DNA of 24,000 nt from Arthrobacter sp. GMC3 (GTDB lineage: Bacteria; Actinomycetota; Actinomycetes; Actinomycetales; Micrococcaceae), in assembly GCF_002929305.1 (NCBI RefSeq), contig NZ_PJIO01000012.1, forward strand, positions 8,628 through 32,627, in the 5' to 3' direction. The position numbers and the translations under genes were made by a program. The notes under the pieces were generated by a model. That model worked only from the letters and a program-made list of their open reading frames with translations, had not been told where the DNA came from and ran no database searches. This document shows, piece after piece, positions 1-21,466 of this stretch (position 1 is the stretch's first letter; every line of letters begins with the position of its first letter).

Positions 1-716
1 GATCAGCCATCCACCGACCCCGGTGTGGTCTCGCCCGTCAACAACACCTAGGATCTGTCCGGTATCCAGGTCAACGATCGTCGTCATCCACGGCTCGATC
101 CGCTGCCAAGCAATGGTCTCGGTGTTTTTGAAGAAGCGGACGGAGCGGAAGCGGTGTTCATCGATCCCGAGCACGCGTGGCCGTAAGAGATCAATGTTGG
201 GCAGTTTCGTTGCAGCCATGTTCAAGGCTTTTGCACCAACCACCACGAGACACCGTGCGCGGTGGCGGTTTCCGTCGCGGCACGGCCAGAGTCAATGACA
301 GCGCGCACGAGAGCCCTGCGGAGCCGGCTCGTGGTGCGTGACCTGGCCGGGACCTCGAGCGTGGCTTCAAAGAAGGTTCTGCGGGATCATGATGATTCGT
401 CGCAGAACAATCGCCGCTTTGCCCACCCGACTTCCACCGGACCAGCCACCGGGATATCGCGGACGCGTTGCTGCCGGCCAGAATGGCGACGAGTGCCGAT
501 AACACCGCATCCTGGGCACCCGGAATCGACGGTGCTTTCAATATGGATTCGGCGTTGGCCAGAACTCAACGTCTCGGCTCCCAGAACGCGGTAATCGTGA
601 AGATTGAAGATCGTGGTGGCAGCATCAGGGTGCACCAAAGTAAGCTCGTTCAACGCTCGCAGTCCTGTCAAAGATGAATGCGTCAGAACATCCATCACAA
701 CAGGGCTACGAGCCAC
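1..716 (-). pseudogene. ISL3-family transposase, disrupted and cut by the left window edge
   Basis: Minus ORF 387..716 contains ...STVDSGCPGCGVIGTRRHSGRQQRVRDIPVAGPVEVGWAKRRLFCDESS, an ISL3-type N-terminal zinc-finger region. Reading the same frame past the TGA at 387-389 gives SRRTFFEATLEVPARSRTTSRLRRALVRAVIDSGRAATETATAHGVSWWLVQ. After a frame change near 222-235 the reading continues KALNMAATKLPNIDLLRPRVLGIDEHRFRSVRFFKNTETIAWQRIEPWMTTIVDLDTGQILGVVDGRDHTGVGGWLI, which runs off position 1 at the start of the DDE domain. This is my own translation. The last segment is absent from the ORF track because it has no stop inside the window. Confidence 0.8.
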
Positions 717-805: not shown

Positions 806-1096
806 CTGACATCATTGAAGGTGATCAATTTGGATGATTTCTTAACGATCGGAATCGACCCGCGGGCAGCCAATGATCTCTTCACGGTTCTCGCCGACCG
901 GGACCGGCGACTGCCCACGATGGTGCTGTCTCAAACCGGGCCGGAGTACTGGGTTCAAATGATTCACGACCGAGTCGCGGCAGACTCGATCGTGAACCGG
1001 TTGGCGAATAATTCACGACAAATCAAACTTGGAACGGTTGACATGCGGCGTGAAGAAAACATAAGAATGCGCCAAACCGAGGACCACTGGAACTAA
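806..1096 (+). pseudogene. istB: IS21-family IstB helper ATPase, C-terminal fragment only (5' end removed)
   Basis: ORF 815..1096 translates as KVINLDDFLTIGIDPRAANDLFTVLADRDRRLPTMVLSQTGPEYWVQMIHDRVAADSIVNRLANNSRQIKLGTVDMRRE. This matches the IstB pattern (Walker B LLILDDxG, then ..LF.L...R..R.S....SN....W......D..LA.AI.DRL.H....I.L.G.S.R). There is no Walker A or N-terminal half upstream: the frame hits a TGA at 797-799 and the ISL3 end begins there. Confidence 0.75.
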
Positions 1097-1269: not shown

Positions 1270-4200
1270 TTACCAGTATTCTTCAGCTTCCCGCTCGAGC
1301 GCCTGTGATTGCTCATGTTTGAGTGACTGTGCTAGCTTGCGCATCCAGTCTCCGGCAGGTTTTGGCAGCGAAGGGTCTGATATCCATTTGGAGACTTGGG
1401 TGATTTGATCGCGGATTCGATCCGACATTTTTCCAGACCCTGAAATGTTTGTGAACTGATCCTCCAAGGCTGACGTTACCCCGTCATCTGTGCCAAATTC
1501 CGTTAGCAGGTAACGTGCGACCGGAGAAAGCTCCGTGTCTCCTACAAGCGACACTTGGGCCAGAATGCGCGCCCGCACCGCACTGCTTCCAACCCACCGT
1601 GCAGCTATTGGCAGTTCAACTGCGTCTGCCAGCCATTCTTTCGCCGCGACCGTGAGCTTCCATGATTTCAGTTCTAGGCGTCCCATAAGGTCAAGCCAAG
1701 CTGGCTCTCCGGATTGGTGGACGGCCTGTTCTAGCAGTTTCCGTTCCTCCGATCTGCGATGTGCGCTAATGGCTCCAGACTCGATCAAATTGGCCAGTAG
1801 ATGTGCAACCCCCGCGGCATCGTACTTGAGTTGACGTTTGGTCAGTTGCGTCCAGGCCCAGCTCTCGTGTCCAGTCTCGGGAAACATCGTCCGCCTGCCA
1901 ACGAGGACGACTATCAGTGGCTCAAGTTGCTCGAGATATTCTTCTGTGGCTCGTACACGCAAGGATACGAGACGAACTACAGCGTTGTAGTCATCCTGCG
2001 TCGAGATTCGCTCAAGCCAGCGACATAGGTATTCAGCCATACGTCTTTCAGGTTCTTCTTGCATCCATCCAATTAGAACTTGAGCTGCTTTGCTGACATC
2101 GACTTCATGAACTAGGTGCTCGACACGTTCGACTGCCCTCCCGCTTCGCGGACCACGAACCGTAAGCCCCAACTTCTGGTACGGGTCGGTTATTTGCTCG
2201 TCGATGTATGAATCGTAGGCACTTTCATCCCCTGCCTCGACCAAGTGGTTAAGATACCCGAAGACTGCTTCAGAATTTGGCCCATCAAGGAGGGCATCAA
2301 TTGCTCCTGCTAGTCCTTGAAGGTCGAATCCGGCATCGGCGAGCGAAAGGCCAACGAAGTAGGCGGTAGGGATCCTCGCGGATTGAAGGACGTCTAGGAG
2401 CATCTTTCCCGGGTCGGTTGAATTCAGTGCGCGAGCAGCGTCTAAAATTTCATCCGTGACTTCATTGGTTGGCCGATCGTAGAAGTCTCTGTGCACCACT
2501 ACTTGCAGACAGTCTGATGCTGGCTGTGGCGGGAGGAAGGTTTCAAAGATCTCTAGGCCTTCGATAAAGGTGATGTCGCCGTCGACCCGGCCATGCAGTG
2601 ATCTGAGGTTGTCAATTTCGATCCGCAACCGAGAGATAACGAATTGAGGCAATATCATAAGGGCCTGGCCCAGATGATCACGCACTGCCGGAAAGTCTAT
2701 TAGTCCCTGAATCGAGTCCGTTATTTGTTTGGCTGCTGCGGTTGCGACTTCTAGATCTTCGTCGGTGGCAAGTATCACCAACTCATCGATTACAGCGTTT
2801 TGATAATCCCATATATCAGCGTAAGTCTTAGGCTGGCCGCGGCGTTCAACGACTTGCCCACGTTGTAGTTCTCCCGACACAATAATCGATCCGTTTTGTT
2901 TCAGGGCATGCCCAAGCGCCGTCGCTGTCAGCACGCGCACTGTAGGCTCAGGTGATCCTACAACCTTTTGCAGATATGAAATCCGCTGATTTGGCGACGC
3001 TGCCGTCGCCGGGAGCAGGACTCCGAATAGCTCAACCCAAGTTCCCGAGGCGTTGTTGCTGAACGTCTCGGTCTCCACTGTGGCTAGTCGCAGAACTGTA
3101 TCGGCTGCGACTTCGAACGTGCGAGAGTGCCACGCGAGCTTCTCCAGTGTCCACATGAGGTCTCTTCTAATGCCCCTACTTGCGCGCAACTCGTCATCAG
3201 AAGCCTCCCCAATAAGTTGTGCCAATCGATCACAGATTGCATCGGGAGCGATCACGGCAAGGTGACTAAGAAGGCGTGAGTTTCCATGCTCGGCAAGAGC
3301 AGCCAAAGAGGCTAAAGGCCCGGCATCGGAGAGTAGAGCGTCCACTGCACTGCTCGTCGTTTCAGATGCACCGAGGTCGGCTGCTCGTCGAAAGAGACGT
3401 TCGGTTAGGTCTTGGTCGAGATGCGGGATCAAGTCTGAGACGATGCGATCTCCAAATTCAGTCCACGCCTGAGAAGCTAGGTAGACCGCGATTGGATATG
3501 GTGCAACGCTTCGGAACCTACCTTGTTTCGACATGAGGCCTCGCCGTTGGAGCTCAAAAGCAGCTGCTCGGAGCTCTGCAGATTCGAGTCCTAGTCCGAG
3601 GGAGATTGTGGTGAGTTCGTCCTTGACTTTTCCGTCGTATCCAAACCTGCTGAATAGTGCAAGTACGCAACAAGCTAGGAATATTGTGCCCTCGGGGAGG
3701 TCCCCTGTGACAAAAGCACGAACATCGTCACTTGTCACTAGCTGACCGGCTGAGCTAGGACCTCCGCGGACTACAGCACGGGCTGCTTTAAGGGCATAAT
3801 CGATGTTTCCAGCAGCGACCTCAACCACTACCCTTGCCGCTTCCGGCCAGAGTCGGGGTTCACTTTTGCGGAGAAGAGTCGTCATTGCCTGGTCATCGAA
3901 TCGTTCTAGAGTGACCATCGCAGTTCGGGGCTGCTTCCCCCAAGGCTCCCCAATCGTCATCAACAGTAGGCGTGAATCACCAGGAAGAACTGATGCGTAA
4001 CTTTCATGTCTCTTCCTTTCGCACTCATCAATTACTACAATTCCAGTCCGCCCCTGCGACTGAAGCTGGCTAAGAACATTGACACTGAAGGAATCGGCTG
4101 CCGGAGCATAGAGCACAGCTGACTCGAAAGGTTGTCCTCGGAGGGCTTCGAGAGCTAGACGAGTCTTTCCTAAACCGCTTACACCGTCTATGTGGATGTC

Positions 4201-4845
4201 AAGTTGACTTTCGTCTAAAACGAATCGACGAATGGTCTCGATATTTGCGTCTCGTTCCTCGGAGGATACCCACTCCGTGGCGTGTCGATGCGAGTCAGCC
4301 CACTCGTCGAATGTCTGACCCATCGGGTCATTGCCCCCCAATATGGGGCTGACTGCGATTGCTGGATATTGCTCGGCCCACCTTGCAAGCCCGTCGGCGC
4401 TGATGACCTCGATTAGTTGGTTAGCATTGGCAATTCCCAGCTCTGTAGCGGTCGTAATCAATGCATCGCGACGCCTCTCAATTTTCACCGGGGGGAGGCT
4501 TGCCCCCAAGACTAAGCGATAAGCACCTCCGCCACGGAGTGTCTCAAGTGCCCTGGTTGCGCCGCCCAGTTCCTTCTTACACTTGGCCGGGTTCAGATCT
4601 CCTGCCTTGAACTGCCATGCGCTGTCTCCAGCAGGAATCCATGTAGTTTCACAGGCATTTCGCAGACCCGCGTCAACCCCGCCGTCACCGACGTTCTCTT
4701 GGTAAGTAGCTTCGAGCACTGTGCCCTGCATCCGATAAGCCGCAGCTTCAGTGCTGAGGAGCTTAGTTACGAACGCCCCAAATCTCGCACCACCCAATGT
4801 GGCAATCTGTTGGGGAGCGACTGAAAAGGGGCCAAAATCAGGCAT
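1270..4845 (-). CDS. Large nuclease-NTPase-helical repeat protein (Mrr-like PD-(D/E)xK N-terminus + P-loop STAND/AAA-like NTPase + ~800-aa alpha-helical C-terminus); Avs-like candidate defence protein
   Basis: - Uninterrupted 1191-codon ORF with GAGGAAGGA about 8 nt upstream of the ATG at 4845.
- Nuclease motif: residues 52-80, VGDGGVDAGL...(17 aa)...AWQFKAG, plus strand 4606-4686, of the Mrr_cat type (GDgGiD ... Q.K).
- Walker A: GVSGLGKT, residues 221-228, plus strand 4162-4185.
- Walker B: GIVVIDEC, residues 268-275, with D273/E274 at 4024-4029.
- The rest is Leu/Ala-rich with HEAT-like segments such as SPEPTVRVLTATALGHAL.
- Composition: five 60-nt lines counted inside the gene gave 47-58% G+C, against 62% for one line in ppgK. 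Confidence 0.85.
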   Translation of the reverse strand: MPDFGPFSVAPQQIATLGGARFGAFVTKLLSTEAAAYRMQGTVLEATYQENVGDGGVDAGLRNACETTWIPAGDSAWQFKAGDLNPAKCKKELGGATRALETLRGGGAYRLVLGASLPPVKIERRRDALITTATELGIANANQLIEVISADGLARWAEQYPAIAVSPILGGNDPMGQTFDEWADSHRHATEWVSSEERDANIETIRRFVLDESQLDIHIDGVSGLGKTRLALEALRGQPFESAVLYAPAADSFSVNVLSQLQSQGRTGIVVIDECERKRHESYASVLPGDSRLLLMTIGEPWGKQPRTAMVTLERFDDQAMTTLLRKSEPRLWPEAARVVVEVAAGNIDYALKAARAVVRGGPSSAGQLVTSDDVRAFVTGDLPEGTIFLACCVLALFSRFGYDGKVKDELTTISLGLGLESAELRAAAFELQRRGLMSKQGRFRSVAPYPIAVYLASQAWTEFGDRIVSDLIPHLDQDLTERLFRRAADLGASETTSSAVDALLSDAGPLASLAALAEHGNSRLLSHLAVIAPDAICDRLAQLIGEASDDELRASRGIRRDLMWTLEKLAWHSRTFEVAADTVLRLATVETETFSNNASGTWVELFGVLLPATAASPNQRISYLQKVVGSPEPTVRVLTATALGHALKQNGSIIVSGELQRGQVVERRGQPKTYADIWDYQNAVIDELVILATDEDLEVATAAAKQITDSIQGLIDFPAVRDHLGQALMILPQFVISRLRIEIDNLRSLHGRVDGDITFIEGLEIFETFLPPQPASDCLQVVVHRDFYDRPTNEVTDEILDAARALNSTDPGKMLLDVLQSARIPTAYFVGLSLADAGFDLQGLAGAIDALLDGPNSEAVFGYLNHLVEAGDESAYDSYIDEQITDPYQKLGLTVRGPRSGRAVERVEHLVHEVDVSKAAQVLIGWMQEEPERRMAEYLCRWLERISTQDDYNAVVRLVSLRVRATEEYLEQLEPLIVVLVGRRTMFPETGHESWAWTQLTKRQLKYDAAGVAHLLANLIESGAISAHRRSEERKLLEQAVHQSGEPAWLDLMGRLELKSWKLTVAAKEWLADAVELPIAARWVGSSAVRARILAQVSLVGDTELSPVARYLLTEFGTDDGVTSALEDQFTNISGSGKMSDRIRDQITQVSKWISDPSLPKPAGDWMRKLAQSLKHEQSQALEREAEEYW

Positions 4846-5284: not shown

Positions 5285-5998
5285 ATGGCGCAGCTAGTCC
5301 CGCGAGATCCCGGCCGCAAAGTCTGGAGCTACCTCCAATCCGAACTGGGTACAAGCTCCGCAACCCCGTCCGACCTCGCCGTCGGGTACTTGAGGACTTA
5401 TCTAACCGGCGTCGACCCCGTGGTGAGTGGGGACTGGCCCGCTATCGGAAGGCGCTTCGAGCATCTGGCAACAACCGACATCGACCCCAACATCATCACG
5501 GCCGAGGACCTGTTGTCAGTTTCATTCCTCTCTGTGAATGTCCCTCCCAGGGCTGCTTGGGCAATTCTCACCTCCCGAAGCACTGCAATCGCTAAGAAGC
5601 TGGCGCAAATCCCCAACAAGGTGTCCATTGAACACCCTGGATGCACCCTGGACATGTATCTCGATGACTCTGCGCTACAAGGTCTTTGGAACCTTCTGCG
5701 GAGAGACGAAAACGAAAACCTATGGGACATGGGTGCGACGAAGATCAGCAAGGTCATGGCCCGCAAACGTCCGCACCTGGTTCCTATCCAGGACCGTATA
5801 GTCGTCTCCGAACTGGACGCCTCTGACGCGGACTATTGGGAAATGTGGTGGCACGCCATGCACCTACATGAAAACGGCAAACCAGTCGTGGCAGACTTTG
5901 CCCGTGAGCTGCGAGAACGCATCCCCGAAGCTGAGAAACTCAGCCTGCTGCGAACATTGGACATCGTCATGTGGATGCACAGGACCCATCGAAACTAG
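5285..5998 (+). CDS. Uncharacterised conserved actinobacterial protein, DUF6308-like
   Basis: 237-aa ORF with GGAGAA 5 nt upstream of the ATG. The motifs ITAEDLLSVSFLSVNVPPRAA, GATKISKVMARKRPHLVPIQDRIV and LRTLDIVMWM match my recollection of DUF6308 proteins (F..DDL.AV.FLSV.VP..AA ; GvG.TtASKLLARKRP.L.PI.D ; .FD.i.WM). The family name is from memory and was not searched. Confidence 0.75.
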   Translation: MAQLVPRDPGRKVWSYLQSELGTSSATPSDLAVGYLRTYLTGVDPVVSGDWPAIGRRFEHLATTDIDPNIITAEDLLSVSFLSVNVPPRAAWAILTSRSTAIAKKLAQIPNKVSIEHPGCTLDMYLDDSALQGLWNLLRRDENENLWDMGATKISKVMARKRPHLVPIQDRIVVSELDASDADYWEMWWHAMHLHENGKPVVADFARELRERIPEAEKLSLLRTLDIVMWMHRTHRN

Positions 5999-6579: not shown

Positions 6580-6905
6580 GATCGGCTCGTTATCCGGCGG
6601 CGCCGCCAACAATTCGGCCGGACGATTGTGGGGTGGGCGACCTACACGATCAGGGACACCGCCTTCGTAGCGCGCTGCTTGCGCATGGCGCTATGGCGCC
6701 GCCAGCACACCGGCCGACCCGTCCCGGAAGGCCTCATTCATCATAGCGATGCGGAAAGCCAGCACACCTCGATCCGATACACCGACACCTTGGAGTTGGC
6801 AGGCATGCAACCTTCCACCGGATCTGTGGGCGCCGCGTACGACAAGCCGCGGCAGAGACGGTGATGGGGTTGTCCAAGAACGAGGCCGTCGCCGCTGTCG
6901 TCTGA
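6580..6905 (+). pseudogene. IS3-family transposase (OrfB/rve integrase core) internal fragment, frameshifted and truncated at both ends
   Basis: One frame reads GRTIVGWATYTIRDTAFVARCLRMALWRRQHTGRPVPEGLIHHSDAESQHTSIRYTDTLELAGMQPSTGSVGAAYD, matching the IS3 pattern SR.IVGW....M...LV..AL.MA...R.P..GLIHHSD.GSQYTS..Y...L...GI..SMGSVG..YDNA. After a shift at about 6850 it continues AETVMGLSKNEAV and ends at the TGA at 6903-6905. There is no N-terminal HTH/OrfA and no C-terminal part. Confidence 0.75.
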
Positions 6906-6907
6906 GC

Positions 6908-7510
6908 CTAGAGGTCGAGGCGGCGGTCCCGCCAGTAAAACTCCCGGTCATGGTCACTGATTTCTCGTACGACACGACAAGGAACCCCAACGGCGACAAC
7001 GCCTGAGGGAACGTCACGGGTAACGACACTTCCGGCGCCGATGACGGTGTTGTCACCGATAGTGACCCCGGGCATGATTTGGGCGCCACTTCCGATCCAA
7101 ACGTTGGATCCGATGTGCACAGCAAGGTTGAATTGCAGTCCTCGGACCCGTAGCTCGGGGAGTATCGGGTGACCGGCCGTCGTAACGACGACGTTGGGCC
7201 CGAACATAGTGTTGTTTCCGATGTAGATGTCCCCGTCGTCGACGAGGGTGAGGTTGAAGTTGGCATAGACGTTGTTTCCGACATGGACGTGCCGGCCTCC
7301 CCAGTTCGCTCGCAGCGGGGGTTCGAAGTAGCAGCCATCGCCCAGCGTTCCAAACATTTGGCGCAACAACCTTGACCGCTCGTCCAGCTGGGACGGGCGG
7401 GTGGCGTTAAAGTCATGCAGCAGCTCGAGGGCTTCGGCCTGTTCAGCCATGATCAGGCCTTCGCTGGGATCGTAGACTTGGCCGTTTAGCATTCGTTCGT
7501 AATTGTTCAT
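6908..7510 (-). CDS. maa: Maltose/galactoside O-acetyltransferase (hexapeptide-repeat, Maa/LacA family)
   Basis: The protein starts MNNYERMLNGQVYDPSEGLIMAEQAEALELLHDFNATRP (Mac N-terminal domain). This is followed by left-handed beta-helix hexapeptide repeats (IGNNTMFGPNVVV..., IGSNVWIGSGAQIMPGVTIGDNTVIGAGSVV). The start is placed at the ATG at 7510 with GGAGA 7 nt upstream. The track ORF start at 7630 adds 40 implausible residues. Confidence 0.85.
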   Translation of the reverse strand: MNNYERMLNGQVYDPSEGLIMAEQAEALELLHDFNATRPSQLDERSRLLRQMFGTLGDGCYFEPPLRANWGGRHVHVGNNVYANFNLTLVDDGDIYIGNNTMFGPNVVVTTAGHPILPELRVRGLQFNLAVHIGSNVWIGSGAQIMPGVTIGDNTVIGAGSVVTRDVPSGVVAVGVPCRVVREISDHDREFYWRDRRLDL

Positions 7511-8143
7511 TCCAAATCTCCTCGTGAAATTTCGATGGTTTGGGCCTCTAAATGCATACTGATATCGCCGCTGCGCATGGAAGCCAGGGCGCCAGTGATC
7601 AGTCGGGCGAATGACCGTAGTGCGGGGCAAGCAAGCAAGCCACGAGATGGACGTTTTCGGCTATGAAACCCACATAAATGGGGCATCAGATAATAACCCG
7701 ATTCTCATCCACCTCGACACGACGGTGAAGCCTATGACATTGCGGAGACAGCGCTTCTCTTGCCACTAGCGGCATATCGGCCGAGGCGGTGAACAGTCCA
7801 CGGGCCGTCAACTCGACTCAGCGCGCCATGCGTGTGAAGACGTGCCTCGAGTGGGAATGCCCGAGAAAGTCTCGTCGACGCCAGTTTCCCCAGTCGTCAA
7901 TCGACGCATCGAAGTCGTCAGAATTCGCGGGAACATCCTTGGGGTTGAGTTCCATTTCCAAGTCCTAGCCGGAAGCGTGGTGGTGTTAACGCCGTGGCCG
8001 CCAAAGTTGGGCTTCTAGTTAGTGCCAAAATCATTTCCCTAGCTTTGCTGCGGCTGCTGGGGTTGCGCAACTCGCTGGTCCTATCAAAAAGCAGTTCGCG
8101 CCTCTTTCCATCCGACCGCAGCTGGCCTCTACCTCGCCCTTTG

Positions 8144-8215
8144 CACCGCACAGAGTCAACAAGAACCAACCGCCACCTCGTCAGGGGTGCGGGTGCTTGT
8201 TGACTCTGTGCGGTG
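8144..8215. repeat. Perfect 20-bp inverted repeat CACCGCACAGAGTCAACAAG (8144-8163) / CTTGTTGACTCTGTGCGGTG (8196-8215) with a 32-nt spacer
   Basis: Read directly from the sequence. It lies 10 nt downstream (minus strand) of the GH36-like gene stop at 8225. Confidence 0.7.
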
Positions 8216-8224
8216 AAGGAGAAA

Positions 8225-9931
8225 CTAAGGTGTGTGGATCGTAACCCAGCTGAGGCTGGCGACAGGGACACTGTGTATGCCTTTTGGCAGCGGACCGGTC
8301 TCCGACACGATACTGCCGGACGGATCGTAGACTTGCACCGCTGTCGCCGGAGATGTGAGCTCTATGATGATGTCGTCAACGGGTGATCCGTTGACAACGG
8401 TTGTCTGCACCATTCTCTCGTTGAAGCGAACGACTTCGGGGCGATGTAGAACGATCACGGATCGTTGGTCGCCTTCAAACCGTGCAAGGGGGTAGCGCTC
8501 AGCTGGTTGGGCGTCGACGAAACGCCCATCGAGCAGGACGTCGCGATGGTCACGCCACAGACCGATCATCCCGGCAATTCGCTTGTGATGGGCGTCGCTC
8601 AGTGCAGTGAGGCGCATCGAGAGTTGCGGAACGCTGCCGAGAGTGTTGAGGAGCTGCCAGGCGGCCGCGTCAGGGCTGTCGTCTTCGCCCCACATGACCA
8701 TGTCTGAGTGGACGACGCCCGAGGTCATCGCGAGACGAGCGTCGAGAATGGAGACTCGATTGGTCACTGCATCCCCCGGACAATCCACAGCTCGGATAAT
8801 ACTGGCGAACGGGGCAAGCGCAGGGCTGACGTAGGGTTGCCGGAACTCGATCGTCCCTGGCAGTCCTTCGTCGACGATACGCCGATTCAGCTCGGACATC
8901 CATGCCTCCACCGCCTCGCCGACATCGTGGATGTCCCCCTGAGTGGGCGTGCCGTCATAGATCATGGCGTCGTCGAGGAAGTCGAGCTTGAGCCCATCGA
9001 CACCGTAATCACGGAGAATGTTGAGGCAGAGGTCGGTGAGATATCGCCGGGACTCGGGAAGCCTTGGGTCAATCACAGACGTCGACCCTGGTCGCACCGT
9101 TGGGGCCAAATGTGAGAAGCGCTGATAGGTCTCCGACTCAGGTCCAAGGAGCAGCGGTGCAACCCAGACAACCGTCTTGAGACCAAGGCCTCGCAGCTCA
9201 GCTACAAGCACCGAAAGGTCAGGAATCTTCTCCGGGTCCGGCGTCCAGTCACCGCAACCGTCATATCCGCGGCCCGAGGCATGCATCTGCCATCCATCAT
9301 CGAGAAAGATGGAGCCAAAACCTAGAGTTGCTGCGAGGCGCGCTTCGGGGATTATTGAGCGGGCGTCAAGATCCTGATTGAAGGCGTACCAAGTCGAATA
9401 GACCGGCTCTCGCGCGAAAGAGGATACCTGGGCGGGTGGCTCCGTCACCGAAGCGGCAAGGCAGGTCGCTAGATCTTGCGCACAATCCTCGAGAGAAGCT
9501 CCCGGTCGACGGAGAAACAATTGGTGCGGCGCTCCTGAGGGTGACGGGGCGAAACGCAGGGTGACGACGAAAACCTTCTCTTCTTCGCTGACACCTGCTT
9601 CGATTCGCGTGGTTCGGACGATGTTATCTAGAGCCCATCCCCCTGCCACACGACCATTTCGGTCGTAGACAATGCCGAGCGGGACGGAGTGGATCAGGCT
9701 TGTTTGGTATCGATGGACTCCGCCCGGCAGGAGAGTGCGCATCTCCCGTGAGTCTGGAGTCCAATAGCCGATTGCTTCGTGCAAGGGGAATCGCAGTCTC
9801 ACAGCAACCTCAGCCGTGTCCGCGTCAGCGTGAATGCGAAGGAGCGGGGAATTTTCATCACGCTCAAATTCGACCCGCGTTCCGCCGAGAGGCTCCACCA
9901 AGAAGCCTGATCCAACATCCAATGTATTCAT
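8225..9931 (-). CDS. Glycoside hydrolase, clan GH-D / GH36-like alpha-galactosidase family
   Basis: 568-aa ORF. It has TIM-barrel motifs typical of melibiase-type enzymes: IFLDDGWQ and DYGVDGLKLDFLDD (the K-x-D nucleophile region). A beta-sandwich-like N-terminus and C-terminus are also present. Substrate specificity cannot be read from the sequence. Confidence 0.6.
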   Translation of the reverse strand: MNTLDVGSGFLVEPLGGTRVEFERDENSPLLRIHADADTAEVAVRLRFPLHEAIGYWTPDSREMRTLLPGGVHRYQTSLIHSVPLGIVYDRNGRVAGGWALDNIVRTTRIEAGVSEEEKVFVVTLRFAPSPSGAPHQLFLRRPGASLEDCAQDLATCLAASVTEPPAQVSSFAREPVYSTWYAFNQDLDARSIIPEARLAATLGFGSIFLDDGWQMHASGRGYDGCGDWTPDPEKIPDLSVLVAELRGLGLKTVVWVAPLLLGPESETYQRFSHLAPTVRPGSTSVIDPRLPESRRYLTDLCLNILRDYGVDGLKLDFLDDAMIYDGTPTQGDIHDVGEAVEAWMSELNRRIVDEGLPGTIEFRQPYVSPALAPFASIIRAVDCPGDAVTNRVSILDARLAMTSGVVHSDMVMWGEDDSPDAAAWQLLNTLGSVPQLSMRLTALSDAHHKRIAGMIGLWRDHRDVLLDGRFVDAQPAERYPLARFEGDQRSVIVLHRPEVVRFNERMVQTTVVNGSPVDDIIIELTSPATAVQVYDPSGSIVSETGPLPKGIHSVPVASLSWVTIHTP

Positions 9932-10702
9932 TACTTAATCAATCCTTATTCTGGGGTCAAGATGGTACACAAGGGCCAGAAGGCAGCGCCTTCCCTGACG
10001 AAACGTCCGCAGTGCATCTTCCACGAGCGATCGGGCATAGCGGCTATCAAAGAAAATTTTAACGATCCAATCAACCGCGTATCACGATAGTCACGACAAT
10101 CAGGAGGTGTCAACCATGTTTGCGAAAACACCCATGAAGATGCACCTCGAGTGCAGCGGCCGGCTCCGGTTTCCAAGGTGTGGGCCTGGTGAAATGTAAG
10201 CCCTCACGCGGAGACCGCCGACACCGGGCCTGGATGAACCCGCTAGAAGGTTGGTGCCGAAGCTCTTCAAGCGGCCGGATACGGTCGAAGTGGCCACCGC
10301 CGCCTCAGCCCCCCCGAGGACCTGCCTATCGCAGTGAGCCTCGGTGATTCGGTTGCGACGGTATTAGCTCCACCACAAGAATGGAACCGCCGCATCCTGT
10401 AAGTGGGAGCTTCTTGCTGCGAGGGTTCCGGCGCAGCGCATCCAATGAGGCGTAGTTCCTTGAAGGCCTCCCACCTAAGACTGCCCCCACTTCCCTGGGG
10501 CATGGGAGACGTGGACCGGCATGCACCCATGGTCCCGTGTCCGAGCATGGCACTGCGCGGCTGGCCAACAAAATTTGGAACGATTTAGTCATATGTCTTA
10601 TCCTGGAATTTGAACGTTAAAACAGATGATGCCAATGTTCTTTCGGATGCAACAGCAGCCGCCAGCCTTGCAACATATGAACTACTTGTTTGGGAGACCC
10701 AC

Positions 10703-11497
10703 ATGTCCAAGAAGCACTCACCCAAGACAACCGTCATCGGCATCGACATTGGCGGCACCGGCATCAAGGGCGGCATCGTCGATTTGGAAACCGGCCAGGT
10801 CGTGGGCGAACGCTTCCGGATCCCGACACCCACCCCCTCCACGCCGCAAAACGTGGCCAAGGTTGTCAAGGAAATCGTGGACGAGCTCTCCGGCCGCGAC
10901 CAAGCCCCGTCAAAGGACGCCCCCGTGGGCATCACCTTCCCGGCCATCATCGCCCACGGCGTCTCCCTCTCCGCGGCCAACGTGGACCAGTCCTGGATCA
11001 ACGCCGACGTCGATCACATCTTCTCCAAGGAACTGGGCCGCGACGTCCAGGTCATGAACGACGCCGACGCCGCCGGCCTCGCCGAGGCCCGCTACGGCGC
11101 CGGCAAGGACATCAAGGGCACCGTCCTGGTCATCACCCTGGGCACCGGCATCGGCTCAGCGTTCATCTTCAACGGCAAGCTCATCCCCAACGTGGAACTG
11201 GGCCACCTGGAACTCGACGGCCACGACGCCGAAACCAAGGCCTCCGCCAGCGCCCGCGAACGTGACGACATCAGCTGGGACGAATACGCCGTGCGCCTGC
11301 AGCGCTACTTCTCCCACGTGGAATTCCTGTTCTCCCCCGAACTGTTCATCATCGGCGGCGGCATCTCCAAGCGCAGCGAAGACTACCTGCCCCAGCTGGA
11401 CCTGCGCACCAAGATCATCCCGGCAGAACTGGCCAACAACGCCGGCATCGTCGGCGGCGCCCTCCAGGCAGCCGTCCACTTCAAGATCACCAAGTAG
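10703..11497 (+). CDS. ppgK: Polyphosphate glucokinase (ROK family)
   Basis: Motifs seen: MSKKHSPKTTVIGIDIGGTGIKGGIVDL (phosphate-1 loop), VMNDADAAGLAEARYGAG, LGTGIGSA and GHLELDGHDAETKASASARERDDISWDEYA...FIIGGGISK. The start is placed at the ATG at 10703 with GGGAGA 5 nt upstream. The track start at 10610 is an in-frame upstream extension. Confidence 0.9.
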   Translation: MSKKHSPKTTVIGIDIGGTGIKGGIVDLETGQVVGERFRIPTPTPSTPQNVAKVVKEIVDELSGRDQAPSKDAPVGITFPAIIAHGVSLSAANVDQSWINADVDHIFSKELGRDVQVMNDADAAGLAEARYGAGKDIKGTVLVITLGTGIGSAFIFNGKLIPNVELGHLELDGHDAETKASASARERDDISWDEYAVRLQRYFSHVEFLFSPELFIIGGGISKRSEDYLPQLDLRTKIIPAELANNAGIVGGALQAAVHFKITK

Positions 11498-11638
11498 GGG
11501 TAGCAGCCTCCAAGCAGTGGGAAACCGATACTGGCCTAAGTAAGTTCGATCTGAATCTAGTTCCCACTACGTTCCCATACACCCCAGCGTTGAGCGAACA
11601 TCCACGAACCTTGTCCTTGAGAAAGCTTCCCCATATCT

Positions 11639-11667
11639 CCTCCCCTCGACATTACTGGCAGGGGAGG
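11639..11667 (+). terminator. Hairpin CCTCCCCT / AGGGGAGG (13-nt loop) followed by TTGGTGTTGATT; possible ppgK terminator
   Basis: Read directly from the sequence, about 140 nt after the ppgK stop, within a 410-bp AT-richer convergent gap. Confidence 0.3.
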
Positions 11668-11907
11668 TTGGTGTTGATTAAGGACTACAAAAGAAACGAT
11701 GGCAGGGTCGCCGTCGCCCGCCATGGCATCAAACTCACTGACGAATTGTCGTCAATATGAGTGAAGGCTACAGGCCGTCATCGGCTCCATCTCTGGTATT
11801 AGAACCATCCTGTTCGCATTGGACTGGTCTTCGGTGCCAGAAGCTAATTCTTGTGACGATAGGTGCGTCGACGGCCATGCGGCGGAGCCCCGCGGCCAGT
11901 CCGGTAC

Positions 11908-12951
11908 TTACCGTTGCGTGCTTGATCCGATGGACAGCTCAGGTTCGAGCAAAACGTGCTGGGGACTATCAGATGGTTCGAGAATCGACCTGACGAGTTC
12001 TCGTGCGATCTCCCGTGAGGGTTGTTTCACAGACGTGATTCGCACTGAACCGAATGAAGTCAGCGGAGTGTCATCGAACCCGGTAATGCCGATTTGAGCC
12101 CCGGGCTGCATGCCTAGATCACGAACAGCCAGAAGTGCACCTGCCGCGAGTAGATCGGACAGACAGACTATGGCCGTTGGTGGATGAGGACTTCTCAATA
12201 GTGTCAGAGTGGCGTTGAGCCCGTCTTCAAGGTCGTTCGGGGCAGAAACAACCCGAGACGGCTGTATCGAGTGTTCCAAACCACGTCGCCGGCAGGCGGC
12301 CAGGTATCCACGCAGGCGAGCATCGCCCTCTACGGTGTCTGGAAGGTGGCCAACAAACGCAAGTTCCGTATGGCCAATTTCAATGAGATGCTCTACGGCG
12401 AGCTCGACACCCTGCGCACTGTCCGCGTCAACCCAATTCCACGGAACCTCATTGCCGGCAGCTGTCTGACCGTAGGCGGCAAAAGGGATTCCGTATTCTG
12501 TCAGCAGAACCGGGCGTTGGTCCTGCGGTTTAATATTTGCGATCACAAACCCTGCAGCGGACTGTCCGTAGAACAGGTCTTGACACGCTTTCAATTGCGC
12601 CTCATGGGTCGGTTCGGCTATGAGCGTGAGGTTTCGCCCCTCGGCTTGGCACGCGCTGGCAAGCTCGTGGAGGAACTTGTCCATATATAGGTTGCCAGCA
12701 GTATCCTCCGACGGAAGGATATAGCCGATCTGGCGCGGCTGTGCCAGCCGAAGGCTCCGCGCAACAAGATTGTTGCGGTAGCTGAGCGCCCTCATGGATG
12801 CCAGCACCTTGTCGCGAGTCTGATCTGCAACTATGTCGGGTCTGTTGATGACATTGGAAACTGTCATCACTGACACGCCAGCGCGCTCCGCGACGTCTGA
12901 CATACTCGCGCGGCGTATCGATTTATCTTTGGCTTGGGATCCTGCGTTCAC
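11908..12951 (-). CDS. LacI-family transcriptional regulator
   Basis: N-terminal HTH ASMSDVAERAGVSVMTVSNVINRP followed by a periplasmic-binding-protein-like sugar-binding core (...LTGFDD-type segment ITGFDDTPL). GTG start at 12951 with GAGGGGA upstream. Confidence 0.9.
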   Translation of the reverse strand: MNAGSQAKDKSIRRASMSDVAERAGVSVMTVSNVINRPDIVADQTRDKVLASMRALSYRNNLVARSLRLAQPRQIGYILPSEDTAGNLYMDKFLHELASACQAEGRNLTLIAEPTHEAQLKACQDLFYGQSAAGFVIANIKPQDQRPVLLTEYGIPFAAYGQTAAGNEVPWNWVDADSAQGVELAVEHLIEIGHTELAFVGHLPDTVEGDARLRGYLAACRRRGLEHSIQPSRVVSAPNDLEDGLNATLTLLRSPHPPTAIVCLSDLLAAGALLAVRDLGMQPGAQIGITGFDDTPLTSFGSVRITSVKQPSREIARELVRSILEPSDSPQHVLLEPELSIGSSTQR

Positions 12952-13218
12952 GATTTCCCCTCGTGTGTTGGCTGTGCATCACGGTCGATCATCTGGCTCA
13001 GTCGGCCCTCGCCCTCTGATATAGAGAATACTAGGGCGGATTGAGCGGGTCGGCTCTGCGGTGTAGATCAGCCGATGCAGTGGGGCGAGGATCCCGGTAC
13101 GCTGTCGTGAATCTGAGGCCGAGACTCACAGCCTCGATCAGCGTCAGGCTAATTAGACTATCAGCGGCAGTGGCCCAGCCACCTGAAGATAATCTTGGTT
13201 TTCAAGGCGCGTCACCTT

Positions 13219-13270
13219 CCGAGCTCGCTGTGCCAGTGATGACGGTTAGGCACTGGTACAGCGAGCTCGG
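13219..13270. repeat. 20-bp inverted repeat with one mismatch (CCGAGCTCGCTGTGCCAGTG / CACTGGTACAGCGAGCTCGG), 12-nt loop
   Basis: Read directly from the sequence. It sits in the 480-bp gap between the GH63-like gene and the LacI gene, which are both on the minus strand. Confidence 0.65.
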
Positions 13271-13433
13271 GGCGTCTCTTGCCACAGACTACGACTTAAG
13301 ATGTTGGTGGTGGATTTGGCGGCCAGGATGTGAACCAAGGCATCGTCCGTCATGCACATTGCAGGGGCGATAGTTTTACGCGGGGCCGTCGAGACCGCCC
13401 GTTGTTTGATGGCTACACGCGGGCCAAAGGCGG

Positions 13434-15140
13434 TCAGCCTTGGAGAGCCAATTCGGCCTCCTCCGCCAGTAGCAAGTAGCAGCTCGCGGTCCATGTGTAT
13501 GAGCGGTCTCGCAGCCCTTCTCCAGTAAGGGCGTCGAAATTCTCAGCGAATCCGAAACGTTCGCACATTTCTCGGAAGCGGACGCTGATCTTGTCGGCCA
13601 GCTCGTTGCGGCCGGCGTCTCGCAGTCCGTGCACGATCAGGTACGTTGACGGTGCCCAGATGGGCCCACGCCAGTAGCCGTCTGATTCATATAGGGCTGA
13701 GTCTGTGCGCTCAGTTGCCAGGCCGAACTCTGTGAGGTGCCCCTCGATCGTTTCCACCAGCCCATCGATCACATCCTCCGGTAGCCGACTGCCAAGCACG
13801 ATCGGCATTGCGAGCAGCAGGCACTGTGACCAGCGTTCGACTCCAGTGCGCGCCTGCAACGCGACGAAATGGGTCTCCCGCCAGAAGGCCTGAAGAAGGT
13901 TAGTAAGCAGCTCCTGCGCCTCGCTAGCCCAGTATGTAGCACTCGCTTCGTCTCCAAGCTCCGCCGCAAGAGATGAGATCGCCTCCATCTGCAGCACCAT
14001 GAAAGCCGACAGATCCGGAGTCTGGAGCGGCGCTTCTCTGCCGAAGAGTGTCGCGTTGTCCCACCCGCTGTCGTTCCCGAAATGGTAGTGAGCAAATTTG
14101 CTCTTCGGTGCCGTCATCGTGGTGCGCCACCAGTTCGTCCACTTCACAAGGGCATCGAGCGCAGCGCGCAGTTCCTCTTCGCTTGGGCGTTCAGTGAGGC
14201 GCGGCAACAGGTTCGTCAGCGCCCAACCGTGAATTGGTGGCTTCGGGTAGTTGTAGATCACCTCGGAATGAGAGACCGCGTCGGGGATCCCACCGGATTC
14301 GGTCTGGTGGTCGAACATGATCACGTACTGATCCCAGGAGGCCTTAGCGTTGCGTGCAATGGCAAGCGCGTTGAAGCAGTGGTCCCAACTCCAGACCCTG
14401 TCCATCCATTGCATCGACATCAGCATGGCCGGTCGGGTGATGAACCCATCCGGCGCAACCGTCGTAGCCCAGTCGACGTACACGGCAGCAACGACTGCCG
14501 GTGTACGTTCGGAACGCCAAGGGGCGACCTGGTTCAGGTAAGTGTTGAACGAGTCCAGCTGGCCTTCTTTCAACTCCTCAAACGTCGATTCATAAGAATG
14601 CGGAACGGCTCCGGCATCCATCTCTTCGATAGCGATCTCCCACTTGTCCTGCCCAGCGGGCGATGCCACCCATGGGAACCCAACAACAGACCGGTCGTAC
14701 ACCTTGTACGCCTCCAGCGGCAGCCCAGAGAGGAGCGTCAGGCGGTAACGTCGGCCGGTCCCATGGACCGATAGGACATAGCTGTCGTCGACCTGATCGA
14801 CATACAACTCACTCACACCCGCTTCAAGCCTGAGGCCCGCTCCGCGCCCTTGGATACGGATCGTCTCGTTGTCCTGAAATACGATCTCGATGACATCCGA
14901 CTCGTGCGTCCAGGTAAGGACGTTCGGGCGCCCCAGCCAGGTCCCCGCGCCTTCCGCCAGAGGCTGGAGCCCTACAACAGAGGTCATCGTGGTCTTATGC
15001 GACACAACATGAACTGTTTCGCGGATATCGTTCAGGCCAACGACCGGAGACACGTCGAGCCACGAGCCATTGGTGCTAAATGGAATGTCCCGGATGGGGA
15101 ACGCGTATTCCTCGGTTGGGACAGCTGGTTCGATAGACAT
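13434..15140 (-). CDS. (alpha/alpha)6-barrel glycoside hydrolase, GH63-like (MGH1/glucosylglycerate-hydrolase/YgjK type)
   Basis: Motifs HYHFGNDSGWDNATLF and YESDGYWRGPIWAPSTYLIVHGL...AENFDALTGEG resemble the GH63 signatures (ESG.DNSP ; YWRGP.W ; ..YDP.TGE). The start is placed at the ATG at 15140 (MSIEPAVPTEE...) with a perfect AAGGAG 7 nt upstream. The track start at 15359 adds 73 unlikely residues. Confidence 0.65.
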   Translation of the reverse strand: MSIEPAVPTEEYAFPIRDIPFSTNGSWLDVSPVVGLNDIRETVHVVSHKTTMTSVVGLQPLAEGAGTWLGRPNVLTWTHESDVIEIVFQDNETIRIQGRGAGLRLEAGVSELYVDQVDDSYVLSVHGTGRRYRLTLLSGLPLEAYKVYDRSVVGFPWVASPAGQDKWEIAIEEMDAGAVPHSYESTFEELKEGQLDSFNTYLNQVAPWRSERTPAVVAAVYVDWATTVAPDGFITRPAMLMSMQWMDRVWSWDHCFNALAIARNAKASWDQYVIMFDHQTESGGIPDAVSHSEVIYNYPKPPIHGWALTNLLPRLTERPSEEELRAALDALVKWTNWWRTTMTAPKSKFAHYHFGNDSGWDNATLFGREAPLQTPDLSAFMVLQMEAISSLAAELGDEASATYWASEAQELLTNLLQAFWRETHFVALQARTGVERWSQCLLLAMPIVLGSRLPEDVIDGLVETIEGHLTEFGLATERTDSALYESDGYWRGPIWAPSTYLIVHGLRDAGRNELADKISVRFREMCERFGFAENFDALTGEGLRDRSYTWTASCYLLLAEEAELALQG

Positions 15141-15619
15141 TTGGTACTCCTTAGTATCTGAAAGATCGATGATTTTAAGCATACAATACAGGAATTCAGG
15201 GCGGATAGCTCCTAGGCGCGTCGCCTCGCGCAGCGGAGGCTGCTGGTGGTTAAAGGCGTTGCCCCTGAACGTGCCGATGACTATGCGGGCCAGAAGGTCT
15301 CCTGAGGACAATGGTTCCTGCGTTACCCGGAATGCGAATCTGAACATCGGGCTTGACATGCCCTTGAAGGTGGGGCTACGTTTACACCGATCGTTGGAAG
15401 CTTAAAATTTTGTCGAAACAACCATCCAATTCGATCGATCAAATAATACTTAACAGACTATGACCACGGAGGGTGGATGCACGCAGAGCTGCGAACCATC
15501 CCCTCTTCTGGGCACAGAATCCCCATAGATCTGCGCCCGTCGCGAACGTTCCACGGTTCCTGTGATCCCCACCGCATAGGACCGACTGGTCGCTCGCACT
15601 CACACCAAGGAGAGAAATA
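15141..15619. promoter_or_regulatory. Divergent promoter region between the GH63-like gene and the ABC transporter operon
   Basis: A 479-bp gap with an AT-rich core (GAAGCTTAAAATTTTGTCGAAACAACC...GATCAAATAATACTTAACAG). It has three sites built on a CGATCG/TCGATCGA core, around 15165, 15392 and 15436. I could not define a clean LacI-type palindrome. Confidence 0.4.
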
Positions 15620-16858
15620 ATGCGTAGATTTACCTCGCGCTGGCTCACAAGCGGTGCCGTCGCCGCCACGCTCGCCCTGACCGCTTGCAGTTCCGGTTTC
15701 AGCGGTACCAGCGACACGGACGCGCTAACTTCATCGGACAAAGCGCTCACCGTCATGATCGGTTCCTCTGGGGACGCCGAGACGGCGGCAGTCAATGAGG
15801 CCGTAGCCGGCTGGTCCGCCTCAAGTGGCACGAAGGCCAGTGTCATCGTCGCCTCAGACCTAAACCAACAGCTCTCGCAGGGCTTCGCCGCCAAAAAGCC
15901 GGCAGACGTGTTCTACCTTTCTACGGACGCGCTGGCGGGTTACGCATCCAACGGGTCGCTGCTCGCCTACGGTGATCAGCTGAGCAACAAGGATGATTTC
16001 TATCCCAGCCTGGTCAAGGCATTCACCTACCATGGCAAGTTCTACTGCGCGCCAAAGGACTTTGCGACGCTGCAGCTCATTATCAACACGGACATGTGGA
16101 GTGCGGCGGGACTGACCGACAGCGACTTCCCGAAGACCTGGGATCAGCTGGAGGCCGTCTCCAAGAAGCTCACCGGGAACGGTCACGTCGGGCTCGGTAT
16201 GGGGGGTGAATACTTCCGGATTGGCGCTTTCATGGCGCAAGCCGGCGGCAACCTGATGAACGAGGACAGTACGAAGGCGACCGCGAACAGCGACGGCAAC
16301 GTCAAGGCGCTCGACTTCACTAAGCAGATGCTCGACGGCGGACAGCTTAAATTCGCCAAGGACCTTGGCGCGGGCTGGGGCGGAGAGGCGTTTGGGAAGG
16401 GCCTAGCTGCGATGACCATCGAGGGTAACTGGATCACCGGCGCGATGAAGGCTGACTACCCGAACATCAAGTACCAGGTTGTGGAGCTGCCAGCCGGACC
16501 TGCCGGCAAGGGCACCATGCAGTTCAGCAACTGCTGGGGCATCGCTGCCGACAGCCCTAACCAGGCCGCTGCGCTCAAGCTCGTCGAGAAGCTGACCAGC
16601 AAGAGCGACCAGCTCGCCTTTGGTACGGCGTTCGGACCGATGCCGTCGATCAAATCGGCCGGCGATGAGTGGAAGTCAGAGAATCCTGGCCTTGTCCCAT
16701 TCTTTTCCGCCGTCGACTACGCCATGAGCGTTCCGACCGTCAAGGGCTTCGGTGACGTGGTGACTGACTTCAACGGCAAGCTGGAGTCATTGGCCACTGC
16801 CGACCCCAAAGTCATCCTTGACGACACGCAAAAGAACATCGAAGCCCTTCTGAAGTAG
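15620..16858 (+). CDS. ABC sugar transporter substrate-binding lipoprotein (family 1 extracellular solute-binding protein)
   Basis: Signal peptide with lipobox MRRFTSRWLTSGAVAATLALTAC|SSG. The length and composition are typical of a sugar-binding protein. AAGGAGAG lies upstream of the ATG. Confidence 0.85.
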   Translation: MRRFTSRWLTSGAVAATLALTACSSGFSGTSDTDALTSSDKALTVMIGSSGDAETAAVNEAVAGWSASSGTKASVIVASDLNQQLSQGFAAKKPADVFYLSTDALAGYASNGSLLAYGDQLSNKDDFYPSLVKAFTYHGKFYCAPKDFATLQLIINTDMWSAAGLTDSDFPKTWDQLEAVSKKLTGNGHVGLGMGGEYFRIGAFMAQAGGNLMNEDSTKATANSDGNVKALDFTKQMLDGGQLKFAKDLGAGWGGEAFGKGLAAMTIEGNWITGAMKADYPNIKYQVVELPAGPAGKGTMQFSNCWGIAADSPNQAAALKLVEKLTSKSDQLAFGTAFGPMPSIKSAGDEWKSENPGLVPFFSAVDYAMSVPTVKGFGDVVTDFNGKLESLATADPKVILDDTQKNIEALLK

Positions 16859-16886
16859 GGACCTCACTCGCGATGTAGCAAACCAT

Positions 16887-16931
16887 GAGGCGGGCTCACC
16901 TTTCCGACAGCCGGTAGGGAGAGCTCGCCTC
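16887..16931 (+). other. Intercistronic stem-loop (11 bp including one G.U: GAGGCGGGCTC / GAGCTCGCCTC, 23-nt loop) between the binding-protein and permease genes
   Basis: Read directly from the sequence, in the 145-nt gap after the binding-protein stop. Confidence 0.45.
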
Positions 16932-17003
16932 AGGTGACGAGTGGATTGACCTGCCCGCCACCCTAGGAAACACGACACAGACTTTTGTTGAACTGAGGAC
17001 CCC

Positions 17004-19021: not shown

Positions 19022-19151
19022 CCCCGCCAGCATCTTGCTGGCCATGTGTCGGGCAAGCACTGCCCCGTCTCACGTTTCTTCCAGTACTAACAGCGGTCCC
19101 ACGGATTGTCCGGGAGGCCCGCCACCCACCACCTATGAGGAGCACCTCCCC

Positions 19152-21161: not shown

Positions 21162-21466
21162 CACCTGTCTCCGGCGTCCTTGCGTGGTCACACCATGATC
21201 GCCCCGTGAGTCGGACCCAGAATCACCAGCCCGCGCAAGCTATTGCGCGCTATCACCGGCTTAGTCATCGCCTGCAATTCAAGGACCGACAACGGGAATT
21301 TTGGCCAGCAACCGCTGGTCGTGCAAGAACTGATCACGCGAGGATCCCTCCTGACTCGTCCTGCACGGTATGGCAAGCAGCGGCGAACCATAACCTCATC
21401 CACCTCTGCTCACCACTGCAGCTCAAACGGCACTCAGCGATTCAACACACCCACAGAAGGACCCTA

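Follow-up and report, generated by a model that had tools for sequence, protein, structure and literature searches.

The window considered here is a 24,000-nucleotide stretch of Arthrobacter sp. GMC3 (contig NZ_PJIO01000012.1, positions 8,628 to 32,627), and its point of interest is a single large gene that, judged by homology, residue conservation and predicted structure, very probably encodes a defence sensor-nuclease of the Avs8 family, also called PD-λ-4. The gene runs from 1270 to 4845 on the minus strand as one unbroken open reading frame of 1191 codons, with an ATG start, a stop codon at 1270-1272 and a Shine-Dalgarno-like sequence, GGAAGGAA (GGAAGG-type), about 7 nucleotides 5' of the start codon. 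Its product matches a "hypothetical protein" of Arthrobacter sp. GMC3 at 100% identity and has around 200 homologues of 39-76% identity, nearly all of them full-length. These homologues and the integrity of the reading frame and its motifs go well past anything that chance would produce and show the gene to be real, intact and under constraint. A promoter and terminator scan returned signals at or under shuffle expectation. The gene and its parts are laid out as follows.

1270..4845, minus strand: complete gene for the 1191-amino-acid Avs8-like (PD-λ-4A-like) STAND nuclease (open reading frame list, identity with the GMC3 protein, PADLOC, hhalign against Avs8A)
4351..4845, minus strand: N-terminal effector, a Mrr-like PD-(D/E)xK nuclease, residues 1-165 (domain model, hhalign against the Avs8A N-terminus and a Mrr catalytic alignment)
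4672..4686, minus strand: DGGVD motif (D54...D58), the 'PD' metal-binding aspartates (conservation, alignment with E. coli Mrr)
4606..4614, minus strand: QFK motif (Q78-x-K80), a Mrr-type (D/E)xK variant at the end of beta-strand 3 (conservation, alignment with the Mrr IQaK consensus)
3901..4245, minus strand: P-loop nucleotide-binding domain of a STAND nucleoside triphosphatase (NTPase), residues 201-315 (model, Pfam matches in the family, hhalign against Avs8A)
4162..4185, minus strand: Walker A, GVSGLGKT, residues 221-228 (conservation, translation check)
4018..4038, minus strand: Walker B, VVIDECE, residues 270-276, with a canonical D273-E274 pair (conservation)
3496..3900, minus strand: helical and winged-helix-like domains of the STAND module, residues 316-450 (model secondary structure, Avs8A-aligned stretch)
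1273..3495, minus strand: C-terminal HEAT/TPR-like alpha-solenoid, residues 451-1191, the predicted ligand sensor (all-alpha model, Foldseek, hhalign against Avs8A)

An initial annotation of this DNA had listed the motifs GDGGVDAGL and WQFKAG, within residues 53-82, followed by KKELGGA and YRLVLGAS, together with the two Walker motifs; all are present as it had described, the first four at residues 53-61, 77-82, 90-96 and 109-116, and the window coordinates of the motifs were confirmed through translation. It had also described a Leu/Ala-rich helical stretch of about 800 residues, which is seen both in the composition of residues 331-1190 (Leu 12.3%, Ala 11.6%) and in an almost wholly alpha-helical model, and had read the order of nuclease, STAND NTPase and helical-repeat sensor as that of an Avs-type sensor-effector, a reading that the layout of the model and the homology to Avs8A uphold. 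Scanned directly with Pfam and NCBIfam, the protein yielded noise only (CheY-binding; HEAT, E=0.2; Hda, E=0.04). The likeness to HEAT repeats is weak, consisting of a PP2A-A match at E=0.002 in a profile search against PDB sequences, beyond which phmmer and hmmsearch found nothing there, and of Pfam HEAT/HEAT_2 matches in 6-7 of 40 family members.

Those 40 family members make up alignment A3, in which the actinobacterial family is joined by more distant full-length relatives, down to 22% identity. Alignment A2 holds the close actinobacterial clade, A4 takes in the Avs8A of Enterobacter, and A6 consists of 20 gammaproteobacterial PD-λ-4A (Avs8A) sequences.

The N-terminal domain had been called a Mrr-type PD-(D/E)xK nuclease, and this call is sustained by a match to the Mrr catalytic profile, by homology to the N-terminus of Avs8A and by conserved catalytic residues. 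When compared by hhalign with a catalytic-domain alignment of 13 sequences, comprising E. coli Mrr and diverse plasmid homologues, it matched with a probability of 70-81% (E=1-4e-5), while seven control segments stayed at or below 1%. The two are collinear through alpha-1 (xFE in Mrr), DGGxD, QxK, beta-4 (YRLVLGAS vs GVFITTSGF) and beta-5 (IEVISADGL vs ivLIDGerL), with DGGVD lying against GDGGIDG of E. coli Mrr and QFK against VQAK. From the close clade through the distant one to Enterobacter Avs8A, D54, G56, D58 and Q78 never vary, and K80 and E33 are conserved to at least 90%. An AlphaFold model of the domain by itself (predicted local distance difference test, pLDDT, 85; predicted template modelling score, pTM, 0.76) has an alpha-beta-beta-beta-alpha-beta core in which D58 begins strand 2 and Q78-x-K80 ends strand 3. 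Between the actinobacterial and Avs8A nuclease segments the hhalign match reaches E=1e-23, and a Mrr-like identity is well supported by transitive homology and motifs, short of proof at the level of the fold.

The NTPase domain is modelled with five parallel strands. Throughout the 40 sequences of A3, G221, G224, G226, K227 and D273 are invariant and E274 is at least 90% conserved, and the Pfam models matched among these members are AAA_16 (19/40), nSTAND_NTPase5 (11/40), NB-ARC (6/40) and ATPase_2 (4/40). The segment aligns with the NTPase of Avs8A at E=1.4e-23. Residues 316-450, which lie inside the stretch aligned to Avs8A, are modelled as helices and then a short beta-hairpin at about 438-445. 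A STAND protein of the transcription-regulator kind was ruled out, there being no helix-turn-helix output domain.

The full-length model (pLDDT 85.8) was compared with known structures by Foldseek, as the initial annotation had proposed for the Avs proteins, and the best PDB match was indeed Avs3 bound to terminase (8DGC, E=7e-10), followed by human SAMD9 and then by the solenoids of importin-beta, SF3B1 and PP2A-A. It is in the solenoid that the family varies most: mean pairwise identity is lowest in the sensor, at 36% for residues 781-1000 against 56% in the nuclease, and falls to about 22% with the distant clade added. Such variability would be expected of a ligand-binding surface engaged in an arms race.

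The assignment to a family comes from comparison with Avs8A. A PADLOC search, likewise proposed in the initial annotation, returned the PD-Lambda-4_A models PDLC03991 (E=1.5e-41, with residues 7-731 of the protein on positions 4-764 of a 1283-position profile) and PDLC03990 (E=4e-18). As reference for the family served PD-λ-4A from a plasmid of Enterobacter cancerogenus, a protein of 1283 amino acids which PADLOC recognizes at E=0 across the full model length. By BLASTP the Arthrobacter protein is 24% identical to it over residues 7-715 (E=8e-25), with DGGVD, Q-x-K and Walker A aligned, and the final ~470 residues remain unaligned with Avs8A by BLASTP and the PADLOC hidden Markov models alike. 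When alignments A3 and A6 were set against each other by hhalign, the match extended from residue 5 to the C-terminus over 1178 collinear columns, with a probability of 100% and E=3.9e-71. Taken in segments, the middle solenoid matched Avs8A at E=2e-25, residues 760-1191 alone matched Avs8A 790-1283 with a probability of 97.9% (E=3e-13, 417 columns), and the last 290 residues gave a match at E=3.7e-10. Deliberately mismatched helical segments, used as controls, scored only E≈0.4 with a probability of at most 0.2%, and the C-terminal match is therefore not a generic artefact of helical repeats.

At the level of sequence profiles, then, the 1191-amino-acid protein is a full-length, collinear and distant homologue of PD-λ-4A. 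This overturns the part of the initial annotation that dealt with novelty. The C-terminal region, which had been assigned to no family, matches Avs8A over its last 430 residues at the E=3e-13 given above; the proposed undescribed clade with an unknown trigger belongs to Avs8A/PD-λ-4A, for which a trigger, the HK97-fold major capsid protein, has been published; and a length of 1191 residues, remarked upon as short for an Avs protein, is not unusual because Avs8A itself measures 1283.

PD-λ-4 came from a functional screen in E. coli, its first description being credited in later papers to Vassallo et al. 2022, and was listed with a P-loop NTPase domain. It has since been renamed Avs8 in two preprints (bioRxiv 10.1101/2025.07.02.662641; bioRxiv 10.64898/2026.01.04.697583), and as a STAND family it has the major capsid protein for its published ligand. 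According to one of these Avs8 preprints, Avs8A is a STAND NTPase with an N-terminal nuclease of the Mrr-family PD-(D/E)xK type, and mutating the active-site residues of the nuclease abolishes defence. Avs8A binds monomeric λ gpE (dissociation constant, KD, ~127 nM) and the Bas21 capsid protein (KD ~14 nM), both of the HK97 fold, ignores assembled virions, and cuts linear double-stranded DNA only if supplied with capsid protein, Mg2+ and hydrolysable ATP together; the co-operonic Avs8B is dispensable for defence in E. coli (Avs8 preprint).

Taken together, the findings are probably best explained by a single-polypeptide, Avs-class anti-phage receptor, a divergent actinobacterial member of Avs8/PD-λ-4A that works by the Avs8 mechanism. 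By analogy with Avs8A we infer that the Arthrobacter protein serves in defence and cuts DNA, and likewise what triggers it and in which oligomeric state it acts, and homology to Avs8A makes the major capsid protein the somewhat favoured trigger. In the resting cell the protein would exist as an autoinhibited monomer, until, on infection, the solenoid (about residues 451-1191) would wrap around a phage protein that is freshly synthesised and monomeric, the likeliest candidate being the HK97-fold major capsid protein. Binding of the ligand would free the STAND NTPase (K227, D273/E274), which with ATP and Mg2+, through exchange or hydrolysis, would drive oligomerisation, probably to a tetramer; the Mrr-like domains (D54, D58, Q78, K80) would thereby be gathered into an active, non-specific double-stranded DNA nuclease, and the destruction of phage and host DNA would abort the infection.

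Every homologue with a source name comes from the Actinomycetota, and all of them are labelled "hypothetical" or "ATP-binding". A family profile recovers 5067 cluster representatives (50% identity clusters, E<=1e-3) from a library of 1.8 billion proteins, presumably including the proteobacterial Avs8 proteins. Among species-representative genomes the occurrence is patchy, taking in Micrococcales, Kribbella, Nocardia, Actinoplanes, Acidimicrobiia, Solirubrobacterales and a few Chloroflexota. The family is rare on viral contigs and does not appear to be notably phage-borne, since IMG/VR yields just three distant relatives. Leifsonia sp. Root4 carries two full-length paralogues on contigs 2 and 3 (loci L028 and L032), 50% and 47% identical to the query, and the specificities of the two might differ.

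Around the Arthrobacter gene the window holds the following accessory features.

387-716, minus strand: fragment of an ISL3 zinc ribbon (Pfam Zn_ribbon_ISL3, E=2e-9)
815-1096, plus strand: IstB C-terminal fragment (Pfam IstB_IS21, E=4e-8, last 81 profile positions only)
5285-5998, plus strand: DUF6308 gene, 237 amino acids (Pfam, E=3.8e-45)
6628..6864, plus strand: fragment of an IS3-family transposase (rve; Pfam E=5.6e-6, under the gathering score)

The ISL3 and IstB debris (387-1096) lies 3' of the Avs8-like gene, and on its 5' side come the DUF6308 gene and then the rve fragment, which clusters by BLASTP with rve transposases adjoining homologues at four other loci. With insertion sequence debris on both sides, the Avs8-like and DUF6308 genes form a bracketed accessory segment of about 5.5 kb, and the remnants of three different insertion sequences suggest a decayed insertion hotspot whose boundaries are approximate. 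No tRNA gene that might mark an integration site is present in the window. The DUF6308 gene, set off from the divergently transcribed Avs8-like gene by an intergenic gap of 440 bp, may be independent accessory or defence cargo; its candidacy as an Avs8B-like partner was rejected, as it has no PADLOC match and is not conserved beside the homologues. From 6908 to 22192 the window is given over to carbohydrate metabolism, with a maltose O-acetyltransferase-like hexapeptide protein, a melibiase-like glycoside hydrolase, a ROK kinase, a LacI regulator, MGH1-like glycoside hydrolases, an ABC sugar transporter and a HAD hydrolase; in this part no defence gene was noticed, and PADLOC found no match in five neighbouring open reading frames of the window. 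The initial annotation had remarked that no methyltransferase is adjacent, which holds among the window's scanned open reading frames, and a classical restriction-modification role was rejected on this ground.

Around the homologues, neighbouring genes of defence and of mobile elements are plentiful. Type I restriction-modification systems stand within the flanks read at loci L001, L007 and L024, and hsdR lies directly upstream of the homologue in four of 39 loci (L001, L027, L036 and L034, the last of which coincides with L024). At L022 the homologue has an OLD nuclease (PADLOC Old, E=6e-92) and HNH proteins for neighbours, at L006 a HEPN_Swt1 protein, and at L002, L004 and L007 integrase, excisionase and relaxase modules. 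In all, genes of the restriction-modification, OLD, HEPN, HNH, integrase or relaxase kinds lie within 10 kb at seven of nine inspected loci, a qualitative count that has no background rate to be set against. When the flanking open reading frames of the 39 loci were clustered, the most widely shared families were tyrosine integrases (6 loci), IS3 transposases (5) and hsdR (4); as no neighbour is common to more than six loci, the gene is a single-gene system with no Avs8B equivalent.

Two further observations concern these neighbourhoods. At L024, from Arthrobacter sp. KNU40, a second and unrelated large STAND protein of about 1500 amino acids (nSTAND1 plus HEAT, 16614-19591) is encoded about 5 kb from the Avs8-like gene, and with the type I restriction-modification system the two constitute a small defence island. 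At three loci (L004, 9443-9919; L031, 5434-5919; L024, 11668-12135) a protein of about 155-160 amino acids, lacking any Pfam or PADLOC match, adjoins the Avs8-like gene; twice it lies 82 bp upstream, and once about 75 bp downstream. It is the sole recurring neighbour that belongs neither to mobile elements nor to restriction-modification, and three loci are too few to give it the status of a partner.

Several points weigh against reading the gene as an Avs8 receptor. Identity to the characterised Avs8A is just ~19-24% and the Arthrobacter protein is about 90 residues shorter; the PADLOC models stop at residue 731, and the C-terminal model PDLC03989 gives no match. The sensor is the least conserved part, so that ligand specificity may have changed. 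As for the nuclease, Pfam Mrr_cat, which the initial annotation had proposed as a check, is undetected at E<=0.1 in the query and the 40 family members, and the link to the catalytic core shows only in profile-profile comparison. With the N-terminal domain alone as query, Foldseek found nothing in the PDB at E<=1e-3, its weak and non-significant top matches being XPF, Can2, EcoO109I, Cap4, NucS and Mus81, mostly PD-(D/E)xK nucleases. In the window the neighbours are sugar-metabolism and DUF6308 genes and no known defence genes, at least one homologue locus (L023) has housekeeping neighbours only, and the evidence from defence neighbourhoods is of the qualitative sort described above. For the Mrr-like identity of the N-terminus of Avs8A, as for the function of Avs8A, the sources are preprints, and the actinobacterial clade is itself known from sequence and predicted structure.

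It is possible, if unlikely, that the architecture and the Avs-type mechanism are kept while the actinobacterial sensor, in place of the major capsid protein, recognises a different conserved phage protein or else a host factor that infection disturbs. The divergence of the sensor, with its 36% mean identity at 781-1000 within the clade and ~22% with the distant clade, would suit such a change, as would the ~470 residues that BLASTP and the PADLOC models leave unaligned; alternative activators have also been noted for some Avs proteins in published work. Against it, the C-termini are still collinear in the profile comparison, with controls far behind, and tailed actinophages use HK97-fold capsids as well. 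Moreover, Avs8A accepts capsid proteins that share less than 15% identity (Avs8 preprint), and since what it reads is the fold, not the sequence, capsid recognition is expected to survive divergence. A related and rather doubtful proposal is that the actinobacterial clade is functionally distinct from gammaproteobacterial Avs8, as a stand-alone protein with a hydrolysis-competent D-E Walker B and a strongly diverged solenoid suited to a non-capsid component of actinophages or to another interface of the capsid. If this were true, it would add a new pair of trigger and receptor and open STAND immunity in the Actinomycetota to study.

Far less credible is an NTP-dependent type IV or otherwise non-classical restriction enzyme, one whose Mrr-like nuclease would attack modified or foreign DNA directly, with the NTPase and helical region used for translocation or regulation instead of the sensing of a protein. 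The Mrr-like motifs, the lack of an adjacent methyltransferase in the window and the position directly downstream of a type I hsdR at four loci are all in keeping with this. Yet the query and the 40 members show no DNA-reading domain, be it the Mrr N-terminal winged helix, SRA or YTH, and Mrr_N goes unmatched at E<=0.1 like Mrr_cat; the NTPase resembles neither McrB nor a helicase but is of the STAND type (AAA_16, nSTAND, NB-ARC), the structure that matches best is that of Avs3, and the homologous Avs8A cuts DNA only in the presence of capsid protein. Most improbable of all is a housekeeping or regulatory STAND protein (a signal-transducing ATPase of the MalT/AfsR type) or else an inactive relic, in either case playing no part in defence, to which the carbohydrate-metabolism genes around it and the lack of any direct Pfam or NCBIfam annotation might point, but which is at odds with an output that is a nuclease with conserved catalytic residues and not a DNA-binding domain, with a reading frame intact and as long as in the homologues, with a patchy distribution and an association with mobile elements and restriction-modification systems, and with the insertion sequence debris that brackets the gene.

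As an Avs8-type receptor, the gene belongs to a known type of defence and not to a new one, and it reveals no new mechanism. What is new is modest: a divergent clade, at 19-24% identity, in a phylum where one survey had no PD-λ-4, lacking a B gene, possessing a D-E Walker B and previously unannotated. The capsid-sensing receptor family Avs8/PD-λ-4 is thereby extended into the Actinomycetota, where standard tools do not report it, and the clade is a sizeable one, with about 200 close homologues and thousands of cluster representatives in the wider superfamily. Possible uses include the annotation of actinobacterial defence repertoires, the picking of hosts for work on Arthrobacter and Microbacterium phages, and testing how far fold-level recognition of capsids reaches across sequence divergence.

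Of the known systems, the Mrr type IV endonucleases (E. coli Mrr, Mrr_cat PF04471) have the motifs of the catalytic core in common with the Arthrobacter nuclease, and in collinear order. Mrr itself carries an N-terminal DNA-binding domain, whereas the Arthrobacter nuclease has none and is fused to a STAND NTPase and a sensor; because of this fusion it is presumably under the control of oligomerisation and not of the recognition of DNA modification.

The Avs1-4 (AVAST) proteins, with Avs3 (8DGC) as the structural example, have the same tripartite architecture of effector, STAND module and repeat sensor, and the ligand-induced tetramerisation that activates their PD-(D/E)xK nuclease is the mechanism expected for the Arthrobacter protein too. 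Avs3 differs in having a Cap4-type nuclease, in sensing the large terminase and in its length of about 2000 amino acids, compared with which the Arthrobacter protein is much shorter; phmmer and hmmsearch against PDB sequences detect no similarity between the latter and Avs3.

The closest likeness is to Avs8A (E. coli ECOR07 WP_000963924.1 and Klebsiella homologues), although here, too, there are differences. One survey has PD-λ-4 in Proteobacteria only, whereas the clade of the Arthrobacter homologue is in the Actinomycetota. Avs8 was originally defined as a two-gene operon with Avs8B, and the Arthrobacter gene has neither an Avs8B-like partner nor a conserved neighbour, an absence compatible with functional equivalence to Avs8 because Avs8B is dispensable in E. 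coli. The Walker B of the actinobacterial family has the canonical D-E (IDEC, the Glu nearly invariant) in contrast to the invariant D-N of gammaproteobacterial Avs8A (LDNCP), and ATP hydrolysis could accordingly behave differently in the two clades. Kinship between the C-terminal sensors can be detected only by profile-profile comparison. The two proteins nevertheless follow the same order of Mrr-like nuclease, STAND NTPase and alpha-solenoid sensor, are of similar size (1191 and 1283 amino acids) and have the DGGxD, QxK and Walker A motifs in common.

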